Assembly (NCBI GenBank): GCA_964228885.1
Contig: CAXRCG010000048.1
Location: 11,768 to 75,767 of the forward strand
Origin: Pseudomonadales bacterium
GTDB taxonomy: Bacteria; Pseudomonadota; Gammaproteobacteria; Pseudomonadales; Azotimanducaceae
DNA: 64,000 nucleotides
Direction of reading: 5' to 3'
Part shown: positions 61,311-63,645 of the stretch, piece after piece
Layout: each line of letters starts with the position of its first letter
Position numbering within the stretch: position 1 is the first letter of the stretch
Notes under the pieces: generated by a model
Told to the model about the DNA's origin: nothing
What the model saw: only the letters and a program-made list of their open reading frames with translations
Databases searched by the model: none
Made by a program: the position numbers and the translations under genes

Positions 61311-61424
61311 GCAACTTAACGGTTGCGTCGTATGGCAAGTGTGAGGGGTCGCACTGTCCATGCAGGGTCGTCATGGTTAAAACCATTCACGTGGCTTTCT
61401 AAATATATTTTAGGGGCTTAACTT
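61311..61424 (+). ncRNA. conserved structured leader, copy 1 (three predicted hairpins) upstream of a small flagellin
   Basis: 114 nt block repeated at 62421-62534 and 63532-63645. Hairpins: gcaac-ttaacg-gttgc, 61332-61361, and cgtcatggtt-aa-aaccattcacg (61369-61391). Confidence 0.5.
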
Positions 61425-62306
61425 ATGGCTTTATTCATTAATACAAATGTCGCATCTTTAGGTGCGCAGCGATCTCTGGCCACTTCGGGAGCAGAGCTCA
61501 AAACCGCGATGGAACGTTTATCTTCGGGTAAAAAGATCAACAGCGCTGCAGATGATGCGGCTGGCTTTGCGATTGCCGAAAGAATGACCGCCCAGATCCG
61601 CGGACTTAACATGGCCACTAAGAACGCCAATGACGGGCTTTCTATGCTGGGCGTGATTGAAAACGCAACCAATGATGTCACTGATATGCTGCATCGCATG
61701 CGAGAACTTGCGATTCAAGCAACGAACGACACTAACAGTGACGAAGATCGCGCATTTCTTCAGTTAGAAGTTGCACAGCTGATAAAAGAGATTGATCGGG
61801 TTGCAGATGATACCCAATATAACGGTCAGACGGTACTTGACGGTACTTTTACTTCTAAGTCAATTCAGGTGGGCACAGAGTCCGGCCAGAAGATCACTTT
61901 TAGTGTCAATGGCATCGGAACCGACAAAATCGGTACTGCTGCAGTGAGCGATGATGCTGCTACTACCAACGTCGATGAAACAGTCGCTGAAGCTGATGTG
62001 GCAGATATTGATATCAGCACTGCTGCAGGCGCCCAGAGCGGTCTTCAAGTGATCACGGACGCGATCGAACAGGTCGCTGGCGATCGCGCCACCTACGGTG
62101 CATTACAAAACCGACTGGAATATACCGTGTCTAATTTGATGAACGTTGCGGAGTTTACAACCGCTGCCCGTTCACGCATTGAAGACGCTGATTTCGCTGC
62201 TGAAAGCGCACGCTTGGCAAAGGCACAGGTCCTGCAACAAACAGGTACCGCAATGCTGGCACAAGCAAACGCTTCTTCGCAGCTCGCTTTATCCCTGATT
62301 AGATAG
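61425..62306 (+). CDS. flagellin, small class (293 aa), copy 1
   Basis: MALFINTNVASLGAQRSL...LSSGKKINSAADDAAGFAI... and C-terminal NRLEYTVSNLMNVAEFTTAARSRIEDADFAAESARLAKAQVLQQTGTAMLAQAN. Confidence 0.95.
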   Translation: MALFINTNVASLGAQRSLATSGAELKTAMERLSSGKKINSAADDAAGFAIAERMTAQIRGLNMATKNANDGLSMLGVIENATNDVTDMLHRMRELAIQATNDTNSDEDRAFLQLEVAQLIKEIDRVADDTQYNGQTVLDGTFTSKSIQVGTESGQKITFSVNGIGTDKIGTAAVSDDAATTNVDETVAEADVADIDISTAAGAQSGLQVITDAIEQVAGDRATYGALQNRLEYTVSNLMNVAEFTTAARSRIEDADFAAESARLAKAQVLQQTGTAMLAQANASSQLALSLIR

Positions 62307-62311
62307 AATCC

Positions 62312-62328
62312 GCGGGCTCAGTGCCCGC
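62312..62328 (+). terminator. hairpin after flagellin copy 1 (weak terminator candidate)
   Basis: gcgggc-tcagt-gcccgc followed by ctcctatttcg. The U-tract is poor. Confidence 0.4.
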
Positions 62329-62420
62329 CTCCTATTTCGCCAGGATAAAATGCGAAAACTGGACTGTTGGTTTTAGCTGTCGCTTAAGACACATAAATGA
62401 TGATCAGCCCAGGCTTCGTA

Positions 62421-62534
62421 GCAACTTAAAGGTTGCGTTGTATGGCAGGTGTGCGAGATCACGCCGTCCATGCAGGGTCGTCATGGTTAAAACCATTCAC
62501 GTGGCCTTCTAAATACACTTTAGGGGCTTAAGTT
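62421..62534 (+). ncRNA. conserved structured leader, copy 2
   Basis: Same length and register as copy 1. Stem substitutions preserve pairing. Confidence 0.5.
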
Positions 62535-63416
62535 ATGGCTTTATTCATAAACACAAACGTCGCATCTTTGGGTGCGCAGCGGTCTCTGGCCACCTCTGGG
62601 GCAGAGCTCAAAACCGCGATGGAACGTCTATCTTCTGGCAAGAAGATCAACAGTGCTGCAGATGATGCGGCCGGCTTTGCGATTGCCGAAAGAATGACCG
62701 CCCAGATCCGCGGACTCAACATGGCCACCAAGAATGCCAATGACGGGCTTTCGATGCTGGGCGTGATTGAAAACGCAACCAATGATGTCACTGACATGCT
62801 GCATCGCATGCGAGAACTTGCGATTCAAGCAACCAACGACACCAATGGTGACAAAGATCGCGAATTTCTCCAGCTAGAAGTTGCACAGCTGATACTCGAA
62901 ATTGACCGGGTTGCAGAGGATACCCAGTACAACGGCCAAACTGTGCTTGATGGCAGCTTTGCTACAAAGTCCATTCAGGTAGGCACAGAGTCGGGTCAGA
63001 AAGTCACTTTTGACATTAATGGTATCGAAACAGACGCGATCGGTACTAGAGATGCAAACGGTGACATCACAAGCACTACCGTCAACAGCGTCACCACGGC
63101 TAATGATGTTAAATCGATTGACATCAGCGACGCGGCAGGCGCTCAAGCAGGTCTGCAGGTGATCACTGATGCGATCGAACAGGTCGCGGGCGATCGCGCC
63201 ACCTATGGTGCATTACAAAACCGACTGGAATATACCGTGTCTAATTTGATGAACGTCGCAGAGTTTACTACCGCTGCCCGTTCACGCATTGAAGACGCTG
63301 ATTTCGCTGCTGAAAGCGCACGCTTGGCAAAGGCACAGGTCCTGCAACAAACGGGTACCGCAATGCTGGCACAAGCTAACGCTTCTTCGCAGCTCGCTTT
63401 ATCCCTGATTAGATAA
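62535..63416 (+). CDS. flagellin, small class (293 aa), copy 2
   Basis: Termini are nearly identical to copy 1. The central ~90 aa are divergent. Confidence 0.95.
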   Translation: MALFINTNVASLGAQRSLATSGAELKTAMERLSSGKKINSAADDAAGFAIAERMTAQIRGLNMATKNANDGLSMLGVIENATNDVTDMLHRMRELAIQATNDTNGDKDREFLQLEVAQLILEIDRVAEDTQYNGQTVLDGSFATKSIQVGTESGQKVTFDINGIETDAIGTRDANGDITSTTVNSVTTANDVKSIDISDAAGAQAGLQVITDAIEQVAGDRATYGALQNRLEYTVSNLMNVAEFTTAARSRIEDADFAAESARLAKAQVLQQTGTAMLAQANASSQLALSLIR

Positions 63417-63421
63417 GATTC

Positions 63422-63438
63422 GCGGGCTATATGCCCGT
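63422..63438 (+). terminator. hairpin after flagellin copy 2 (weak terminator candidate)
   Basis: gcgggc-tatat-gcccgt, homologous to 62312-62328. Confidence 0.4.
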
Positions 63439-63531
63439 CTCCTATCTCGTCAGGATAAAAACACGAAAGCGGGATTGTTGATCCAGGTTGTCTGTCTCGG
63501 CAGATGACTCAGCACCAAGACTGGTTTCGTG

Positions 63532-63645
63532 GCAACTTAACGGTTGCGTTGTATGGCAGGTGTGAGCAATCACACTATCCATGCAGGGTCGTCATGGTTA
63601 AAACCATTGACGTGGCCTTCTAAATCAACTCTTAGAGGCTTACTT
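63532..63645 (+). ncRNA. conserved structured leader, copy 3
   Basis: Same 114 nt register. The middle hairpin has a gcaa tetraloop in this copy. Confidence 0.5.

Follow-up and report, generated by a model that had tools for sequence, protein, structure and literature searches.

The window analysed here is a 64,000-nucleotide (nt) stretch of DNA from a Pseudomonadales bacterium of the family Azotimanducaceae (GenBank assembly GCA_964228885.1, contig CAXRCG010000048.1, forward-strand positions 11,768 to 75,767), with positions counted from its first letter. Towards its end, on the plus strand, lies an array of three small flagellin genes: gene 1 (61425-62306) and gene 2 (62535-63416), each of 293 amino acids (aa) in the list of open reading frames (ORFs), and gene 3, whose start is at 63646 and which continues past the window end. 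Homologues of these small flagellins possess the Pfam domains Flagellin_N and Flagellin_C. Each gene is preceded by a 114-nt block on the same strand that ends at the flagellin ATG (61311-61424, 62421-62534 and 63532-63645). A sequence-only reading of this DNA had proposed that the block is a transcribed, structured RNA element of a 5' untranslated region (5'UTR) with a post-transcriptional role. Having followed up this proposal computationally, we lean, on the strength of comparative sequence analysis and structure prediction, towards the view that the block forms the conserved core of an mRNA leader acting in cis to set the level of flagellin translation.

Together with the ATG, the three blocks form a gap-free alignment with a mean column identity of 93%, and the remainder of the intergenic regions aligns poorly. 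Pairwise, the blocks are 83-89% identical, as against 50-65% for the 114 nt further upstream, which bears out the earlier observation that the blocks share one length and are better conserved than the DNA in front of them. Within the first 354 nt of the adjoining coding sequence, identity at third codon positions is 66-81%. Since the identity of the blocks exceeds this figure, duplication or gene conversion alone is not the cause of their conservation.

A sigma28 (FliA) promoter, TAAAGTTT-N11-GCCGATAA, is found upstream of the first block (61220-61246, plus strand), where it matches 13 of 13 consensus positions and the test pattern TAAAG-N(14-16)-GCCGATAA. Ahead of copies 2 and 3 the best sigma28 site under relaxed scoring reached 9/13, which is noise level, and neither a relaxed scoring for the sigma54 core nor a sigma70 scan returned a site there; the assignment of a sigma28 promoter to the first gene only is thereby upheld. 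The same arrangement was seen when first and internal copies were compared across the window, L001, L200, L203, L207, L213 and L215: the sigma28 -10 element ends 170-206 nt before the ATG in every first-of-array orthologue, and internal copies have none. Since the promoter lies upstream of the block and is confined to first copies, the block should therefore belong to a 5'UTR or to intercistronic RNA, and for the internal copies intercistronic RNA is most simply what it is. In L207, for instance, the spacer between genes 1 and 2 measures 158 nt, about 105 nt of which is the element. A terminator scan of the window identified a terminator-like hairpin with a weak U tract after gene 1 (GCGGGC-N5-GCCCGC, 62312-62328) and a GC-rich hairpin with a poor U tract after gene 2 (63422-63438), both on the plus strand. 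Within the predicted first transcript, the part of the UTR that precedes the block (61254-61310, plus strand) folds in RNAfold into two hairpins, GAAAGCGGCAAUUUGCUGCCGGUUUC (61254-61279) and UACCCAAGCG...CGCUCGGGUA (61282-61310). This part is not repeated ahead of copies 2 and 3, and orthologues carry CGGCAA-N4-6-TTGCCG hairpins where it sits.

Conserved helices of the leader

A protein-guided scan, with one genome per species, yielded 79 loci; the closest relatives are metagenome-assembled or single-cell genomes of Candidatus (Ca.) Azotimanducaceae, of the 'K189A clade' and of unclassified marine Pseudomonadales and Gammaproteobacteria. We built a covariance model (R1) from the three window copies alone and searched both strands of 479 kb with it, obtaining matches solely directly upstream of one flagellin paralogue class and always on the coding strand. 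Taken together, the covariance-model searches returned 60 hits, spread across the window and about 25 loci, 21 of them in the first set, 30 over A-type loci (a set that includes loci reached later via homologous proteins) and 9 in the last set of loci. The element is kept across genera, including genomes with a single copy. Other flagellin paralogues in the same genomes (the 327-aa, 498-aa and ~290-aa types) have leaders of a different kind, with GGGGUC as their Shine-Dalgarno sequence. Two attempts to enlarge the sample were abandoned: the leaders of flagellins P0103 and P0112 (~76% identical) belong to a different class and added nothing to the alignment, and the DNA pattern GGGTC-N(8-38)-ACGYRGCYWTCTA, run on metagenomes, proved too loose, being real in 2 of the 120 returned stretches (L158 and L171). 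Searches against Rfam 15 gave no hit at the gathering score over the whole window, no relevant hit at E-values up to 10 over 61150-63700, and no hit in L002, L005, L013 or L207. The block was thus rightly described as no known motif, having no Rfam match among riboswitches, known leaders or otherwise; it is a new RNA motif, absent from Rfam and restricted, as sampled, to Ca. Azotimanducaceae and K189A-type marine Pseudomonadales.

RNAfold recovers in each window copy the three hairpins described earlier, whose quoted stem and loop sequences are all correct, plus an unlisted fourth. That earlier account of the structure was accurate as far as it went, and missed in hairpin 4, which is predicted to sequester the Shine-Dalgarno sequence, the most informative part. 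For copies 1, 2 and 3, fold energies are -36.5, -39.1 and -45.1 kcal/mol on the plus strand and -22.2, -28.3 and -34.3 kcal/mol on the minus strand, with Z-scores of -3.1, -2.8 and -5.9 against dinucleotide shuffles. The leaders are thus very stable, at -36 to -45 kcal/mol per 117 nt, and whole UTRs -55 to -98 kcal/mol. Folded singly, orthologues each give the same row of hairpins. When 24 distinct A-type sequences were aligned under guidance of the model (A4), pairing was seen in 92.6% of cells, compared with 87.7% in shuffles and at most 47% in slid controls, and 12 pairs are changed on both sides where 5.0 are expected, a number reached by none of 500 shuffles. G-U pairs make up 96 of the 827 paired cells, such that pairing would fall from 92.6% to 81% on the opposite strand. 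This G-U content and the asymmetry of the strand energies point to RNA, read from the plus strand, and stems that change in sequence as pairing persists do not fit protein-binding palindromes. The proposed check, a covariance model made from the three copies, has therefore come out in favour of the helices, in that orthologous leaders retain the hairpins despite changed sequences (hairpin 3 weakly so). The orthologous hairpins, the G-U pairs, the strand energies and the position of the promoter together lend support, at the level of sequence comparison and modelling, to the core of the sequence-only reading.

The helices differ in how they are conserved. Hairpin 1 (GCAACU-UAAC-GGUUGC in copy 1; 61311-61326, 62421-62436 and 63532-63547) pairs in 97.8% of cells and has a mostly invariant stem, in which C-G/U-G/U-A and U-A/U-G variants occur. 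Some of the internal copies of L207, L212 and L215 are without it. Hairpin 2 (61330-61363, 62440-62473 and 63551-63584) combines an outer stem, GUAUGG/CCAUGC, with a variable inner stem, which reads agtgtg/cgcact, ggtgtg/cacgcc and ggtgtga/tcacact in copies 1-3, closed by the loops aggggt, cgagat and gcaa. All six inner-stem pairs are changed on both sides, 95-100% of cells pair, and orthologues display more than 12 unrelated stem sequences, every one of which pairs; those seen include AGUGUG/CGCACU, GGUGUG/CACGCC, GAGUGCC/GGCACUC, GAAUACC/GGUAUUC, GAGCGCC/GGCGCUC, UGGCGGG/CCCGUCA, GCGAAUUC/GAAUUCGC, GGUACGG/CCGUACC and UGGGGCG/CGCGCCA. In the leaders that we term group B, two tandem hairpins occupy the hairpin 2 position and supply further stem variants. 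On these sequence comparisons hairpin 2 is strongly supported by covariation. As to its loops, CC-UUUAGCG-GGG was observed in L002 (4690-4710), L021, L158 and group B (e.g. L005 5885-5935); in group B it occurs twice in tandem. This loop resembles the flagellin ribosome-binding site UUUAGAGGCU. Such G-rich loops (CC-UUUAGCG-GGG and the window-type G-AGGGGU-C) could be decoy ribosome-binding sites or protein-binding motifs.

Hairpin 3 (cgt-c-atggtt-aa-aaccat-t(c/g)-acg; 61369-61391 in copy 1) had been called invariant, and within the window it is; among orthologues the stem loses two of six pairs, reading AUGACU/AACCGU in L003, L013 and L029 and AUGGCU/AUCCAU in L203. A rival pairing is hairpin X (CCAUG-[CAGGGUCGU]-CAUGG, with GGGUC in its loop; 61358-61376 in copy 1), which excludes both hairpin 3 and the outer stem of hairpin 2. 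Hairpin X pairs in 97.5% of cells, with two of its five pairs covarying (G-C/G-U/A-U and C-G/U-A/U-G). Hairpin 3 is accordingly the weakest helix, its sequence support being weak and no better than that for hairpin X. An H-type pseudoknot in group B (AUGGUUG-GGGUCAU-CAACCGU-AUGAC) was also considered and is sterically ruled out, as there is no linker across the 7-base-pair (bp) stem; its pairings are alternative hairpins. A further helix would reach into the gene: nt 6-14 of the flagellin ORF, within the start codon and codons 2-5 (61425-61438), are complementary to the leader sequence AUGGUUAAA (61373-61381). This long-range helix, P5, joins leader AUGNNUAAA to those nucleotides and encloses hairpin 4, and it replaces hairpin 3 in the minimum-free-energy fold that includes coding sequence. 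In 15 sequences, 94.8% of P5 cells pair, as against at most 46% with a slid partner, and the complementarity is kept in copy 3 despite different N-terminal codons. Because shuffles do as well, its covariation is not significant, and we retain P5 as a possibility.

The predicted burial of the ribosome-binding site and how the site may open

Hairpin 4 (61393-61418, 62503-62528 and 63614-63640, plus strand) pairs GGC(U/C)UUCUAAA with UUUAGGGGCU, which in the RNAfold predictions is the Shine-Dalgarno region; the copy-1 Shine-Dalgarno sequence is AGGGG (61412-61416). Its 5' arm reads GGCUUUCU. The hairpin is predicted in every sequence and pairs in 88% of cells, mostly without change, apart from one-sided G-U changes and one swap of A-U to U-A (L029); in group B a hairpin of more than 17 bp takes in the Shine-Dalgarno sequence together with the first two AUG bases. 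For 30 sequences, of which 125 nt of the leader and 45 nt of the coding sequence were folded together, the unpaired probability averages 0.02 for the flagellin Shine-Dalgarno sequence (range 0.00-0.07) and 0.20 for the AUG. A forced fold puts the cost of opening both at 8.4-9.4 kcal/mol. By a generic measure of accessibility from -14 to -5, the three flagellin genes score 0.13, compared with a median of 0.37 for the 53 window genes. Hairpin 4 pairs the Shine-Dalgarno sequence and P5 can pair the start region, so that the ribosome-binding site would therefore be closed by default in these models. The occlusion itself is computed; that it limits translation in vivo is what we infer from it.

A second, ribosome-binding-site-like motif, GGGUC-N3-AUG, lies between hairpins 2 and 4 (61365-61375, 62475-62485 and 63586-63596, plus strand). 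Every hit contains GGGUC, and an AUG comes after it, at a spacing of 3 nt in A-type leaders (window-type and L002-type) and of 9 nt in group B. Its mean unpaired probability over the same 30 sequences is 0.53, and it resembles the GGGGUC Shine-Dalgarno sequence of the other flagellin paralogues. The AUG opens a candidate mini-ORF, AUG GUU AAA ACC AUU CAC GUG GCU UUC UAA in copy 1 (61373-61402, 62483-62512 and 63594-63623, plus strand), which spans hairpin 3 and the 5' arm of hairpin 4. Its putative product is MVKTIHVAF* in window copies 1 and 2 and MVKTIDVAF* in copy 3; elsewhere it reads MAKSIDVAF* (L203), MVKTILT* (L002), MVKTVPT* (L021), MTRTVLT* (L013), MTKTVLT* (L003), MTKIRTHVAFY* (L029) and, in group B, MTRLSKTI*, where the stop codon overlaps the flagellin Shine-Dalgarno sequence. 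When a ribosome was modelled at the mini-ORF stop codon, the unpaired probability of the Shine-Dalgarno sequence rose from ~0.02 to 0.3-0.95 in 21 of 22 sequences.

These observations can be assembled into a model in which the sigma28 promoter before the first gene would give rise to a transcript with a ~170-nt 5'UTR, and genes 2 and 3 would most likely be read from the same transcript through the weak terminators, so that the core would recur as the intercistronic leader of each. By default the site would be closed, with hairpin 4 on the Shine-Dalgarno sequence and the long-range helix able to pair the start-codon region with the leader, and hairpins 1 and 2 would be structural, probably protective or scaffold elements. 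The regulated step would presumably be the opening of this closed site, for which the exposed, invariant GGGUC and following AUG between hairpins 2 and 4 are the likely trigger point. In the most concrete version, a ribosome would load at GGGUC-N3-AUG and translate the mini-ORF into the 5' arm of hairpin 4, a translational coupling of the mgtQ/mgtB type; the main alternative is that a dedicated protein or small RNA would act on the GGGUC loop. We regard the mini-ORF as a tentative candidate for the trigger, suggested by modelling, and not as a finding. A conserved peptide was rejected on account of the varying length and frame and the evenly split substitutions described below, so that at most the act of translation would matter. 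It is conceivable, if speculative, that in FliW-lacking marine Pseudomonadales the leader serves as a self-contained translational checkpoint, in which each flagellin site is locked by RNA pairing and unlocked only via GGGUC-N3-AUG by a ribosome or by an export-sensing factor. If so, it would represent a mechanism of flagellin homeostasis unrelated to CsrA-FliW or FlbT-FlaF.

Several points weigh against this interpretation. Covariation is scant in hairpins 1 and 4, the alignments A3 and A4 were fitted to the model structure, and an accessibility of 0.13 falls in the lowest decile of window genes without being unique there. The transcription start sites, the co-transcription and the translation of the mini-ORF are predictions. 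The mini-ORF itself varies in length (2 codons in the L207 type, 7-13 elsewhere), differs in frame among lineages and, in 2 of 7 group-B sequences, is in frame with the flagellin and fused to it. In L009 its AUG is replaced by GUG, a change that preserves a helix pair; a stop codon near hairpin 4 would be met in two of three frames anyway; and its variable sites are uninformative, with 3 synonymous and 3 non-synonymous changes.

What the leader does could also be explained in other ways, which the same evidence separates to differing degrees. It may be where a regulator specific to flagellin binds in trans, whether a small RNA or an RNA-binding protein, recognising the loop GGGUC and the related ribosome-binding site and so repressing or activating translation, as a functional analogue of CsrA on hag/flaA or of FlbT on fljK. 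This is possible, though we would not expect it; it is compatible with the view of the block as a translation-setting leader, because such a regulator would supply the trigger. It would account for a GGGUC that stays invariant amid variable flanks and stands in the loop of hairpin X and of the group-B hairpin AUGGUUG-GGGUCAU-CAACCGU, for the second G-rich motif in many hairpin 2 loops (G-AGGGGU-C in the window, CC-UUUAGCG-GGG in the L002 type and group B) and for the use of GGGGUC as the Shine-Dalgarno sequence of the clade's other flagellin paralogues; moreover, flagellin leaders are established targets of such proteins (PMC4894983). Yet no candidate regulator gene is linked, the hairpin 2 loops are unlike one another among the three window copies, and the known regulators fit poorly. 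A tblastn search with approximate queries, covering the window and the sampled loci, did not find csrA or fliW in the window or in the clade loci L001-L029. The same search did find both genes beside flagellins in L022, L028, L040, L058, L073 and L076 (Magnetococcales, Thermodesulfobacteriota and Polyangiaceae). None of the three 114-nt window blocks contains a GGA motif, the motifs present being GGGUC, AGGGGU, AGGGGC and AGAGGC, and in orthologues GGA is sporadic and not conserved in position; in the Campylobacter jejuni flaA leader a GGA-to-GGG change abolishes CsrA binding (PMC4894983). With neither GGA motifs nor linked genes found, CsrA/FliW-type control, for which a binding test had been suggested, is unlikely and was rejected as the mechanism. 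Nor did FlbT or FlaF turn up in the precomputed Pfam assignments for every called gene of L200, a 20-kb locus and the only one covered in this way.

Alternatively, the element might serve mainly in mRNA stability or processing, with hairpins left at the 5' ends of cistrons after RNase cleavage protecting an abundant mRNA and the occlusion being incidental. The high stability of the leaders, the hairpin that opens first copies beside the predicted transcription start, the A/U-rich sequence just 5' of hairpin 1 in internal copies and the pairing-only covariation of hairpin 2 would all suit such a structural role. We nevertheless find it unlikely as the main function, since it leaves unexplained both the invariant single-stranded GGGUC-N3-AUG and the strict burial of the Shine-Dalgarno sequence across lineages, and hairpin 1 is absent from some internal copies. 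Mutually exclusive helices that are both conserved (the hairpin 2 outer stem with hairpin 3, hairpin X and P5) raise the idea of a switching sensor RNA, either a thermometer or a small-ligand riboswitch. In hairpin 4 the partner of the Shine-Dalgarno sequence is a U-rich arm, and the pairing includes G-U pairs and a bulge, in the style of fourU and ROSE thermometers. Set against this are the absence of any Rfam riboswitch match, an architecture of hairpins in a row without a conserved multi-helix junction or ligand-pocket-like core, and loops that vary among copies of one genome, which together make a sensor improbable. More improbable still is that the block is a DNA-level promoter or operator of the internal genes, or only a leftover from tandem duplication and gene conversion. 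An operator role is conceivable for inverted repeats and the three tandem duplicates do have homogenised 5' ends, but sigma28, sigma54 and sigma70 consensus sequences occur neither inside nor ahead of the internal copies, the pairing-preserving stem changes and G-U pairs fit neither palindromic protein sites nor the opposite strand, and the block is both better conserved than synonymous sites and retained across genera in single-copy genomes.

Neighbouring genes and other flagellin leaders

The flagellin array is preceded by fliD (59482-60882, assigned from its sequence and the ORF list) and, between the two, by a 72-aa ORF on the plus strand without a Pfam match (60924-61142). By eye this ORF is hydrophobic and probably membrane-spanning, and 71-72-aa ORFs without a Pfam family are called at the equivalent position in L200, L201, L207 and L215. 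In the close relative L200, fliD and the 72-aa ORF are followed by three small flagellins, all of which have the element, then by larger flagellins and by flaG, fliS and motAB. Upstream of the array, the opposite strand of the window carries two sigma54 activators together with fliE, fliF, fliG and further flagellar genes. The activator genes are adjacent, lie on the minus strand and diverge from fliD (56563-58140 and 58173-59204); their L200 counterparts possess Sigma54_activat and HTH_8 domains. The activator of 343 aa seems to lack a receiver domain, because its start lies almost at the AAA+ domain. Two further flagellin paralogues of 617 aa, with Flagellin_IN repeats, are encoded on the minus strand (40954-42807 and 43032-44885) within the fli gene cluster; their leaders are unrelated to the 114-nt element and have GGTGGAGGA as their Shine-Dalgarno sequence.

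A second class of flagellin leader was observed in L204 (1270-1415), and also in L014, L016, L018, L025, L026 and L220-L227. It consists of a sigma28 promoter, a CCGGCAA..TTGCCG hairpin and then a long hairpin, AGCUGACCUU...AAGGAUCAGCU. Because the long hairpin has GGAGGGGUCC and 3-4 GGA motifs, this class, in contrast to the 114-nt element, is a plausible target of CsrA/RsmA.

Palindromes of the form GGCAA-N2-8-TTGCC are found in most loci, at a distance of 100-260 nt ahead of the flagellin genes (window 61258-61275; L004 5808-5851; L013 4626-4669; L200 ~12302), including genera outside the clade, such as Methylophaga (L032, L036, L042, L046 and L049) and Thalassotalea (L030). First-copy leaders have them just downstream of the sigma28 -10 element, the 327-aa flagellins inside the promoter spacer. 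Their stems do not covary, which suggests a site defined by its sequence, whether in DNA, as an operator, or in RNA.

Comparison with known systems

Flagellin is among the costliest proteins of a motile bacterium, and its synthesis is usually tied to flagellum assembly. Its post-transcriptional control is well understood for CsrA-FliW in Firmicutes, Campylobacterota and spirochaetes and for FlbT-FlaF in Alphaproteobacteria; to our knowledge, much less is known of such control in Gammaproteobacteria, which lack FliW. In a marine clade that is abundant and uncultured, the element is a candidate for this missing layer of control. Beyond this, it is a compact and testable case of translational gating, cistron by cistron, in an operon of paralogues, and a seed that is ready for a new RNA family. 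Judging from the models, it is likely an undescribed translational control element for the main protein of the flagellar filament.

The CsrA-FliW leaders of Bacillus subtilis hag and C. jejuni flaA resemble the element in several respects: they too have flagellin 5'UTR stem-loops with compensatory changes between species, a copy of a motif in an upstream loop with a related motif at the ribosome-binding site, and control over translation of the major filament protein from a sigma28 promoter (PMC4894983). However, the C. jejuni flaA leader is 45 nt long with two ANGGA stem-loops (PMC4894983), whereas here the core alone measures 114 nt and the full UTR ~170-205 nt, the element has at least 4 helices, and GGGUC takes the place of GGA. 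Furthermore, the Shine-Dalgarno sequence would here be hidden by RNA pairing instead of by a bound protein, and the element is repeated ahead of each cistron, with csrA and fliW not near the flagellin genes. FlbT and FlaF have been described as controlling Caulobacter flagellin mRNA post-transcriptionally (Anderson and Gober 2000, as cited in PMC4894983); to the extent that this secondary account conveys, the likeness lies in control via a flagellin 5'UTR in a bacterium with several flagellin paralogues. That system is alphaproteobacterial and has no sequence relationship to the element. The Pfam families of locus L200 comprise FliD, flagellins, FlaG, FliS and MotAB.

A different kind of long leader is that of Escherichia coli ompA, whose 5'UTR stabilises an abundant mRNA and leaves its ribosome-binding site accessible. 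Here, similarly, the leader is long and rich in hairpins, one of which stands at the 5' end of the transcript in first copies, and it belongs to an envelope or appendage protein that is expressed at a very high level; unlike in ompA, the ribosome-binding site is predicted to be buried and is accompanied by an invariant upstream motif that resembles a ribosome-binding site.

The other point of reference is translation attenuation, as in cat-86, cmlA and ermC, which belongs to the same class of unmasking by an upstream ORF (uORF). A likeness between the mini-ORF peptide MVKTI(H/D)VAF and the cat-86 leader peptide MVKTDKISS, in the first four residues and in length, is probably coincidence; the string MVKTD was not found in the papers searched. 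In mgtQ-mgtB, an 8-codon intergenic ORF frees the sequestered mgtB ribosome-binding site (PMC8092293), and coupling by an upstream ribosome-binding site (uRBS) is described in Sinorhizobium meliloti (PMC13285730). Of the features that mark uORF and attenuation leaders, a hairpin that sequesters the Shine-Dalgarno sequence is supplied by the predicted hairpin 4, and GGGUC-N3-AUG introduces a putative short ORF in all window- and L002-type leaders, ending in or at hairpin 4, with a length of 2-13 codons and a variable frame. The layout recalls mgtQ-mgtB in that the candidate short ORF, headed by a Shine-Dalgarno-like sequence of its own, would extend into the 5' arm of the hairpin predicted to bury the gene's Shine-Dalgarno sequence; it is intercistronic in copies 2 and 3 and, at 7-9 codons, of similar length. 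Unlike mgtQ, the mini-ORF is a candidate only, conserved in neither length nor frame and with no known stalling signal or inducer. The element would work in the manner of other controls on flagellin leaders and of systems in which a ribosome-binding site is unmasked; it is a member of none of these families.

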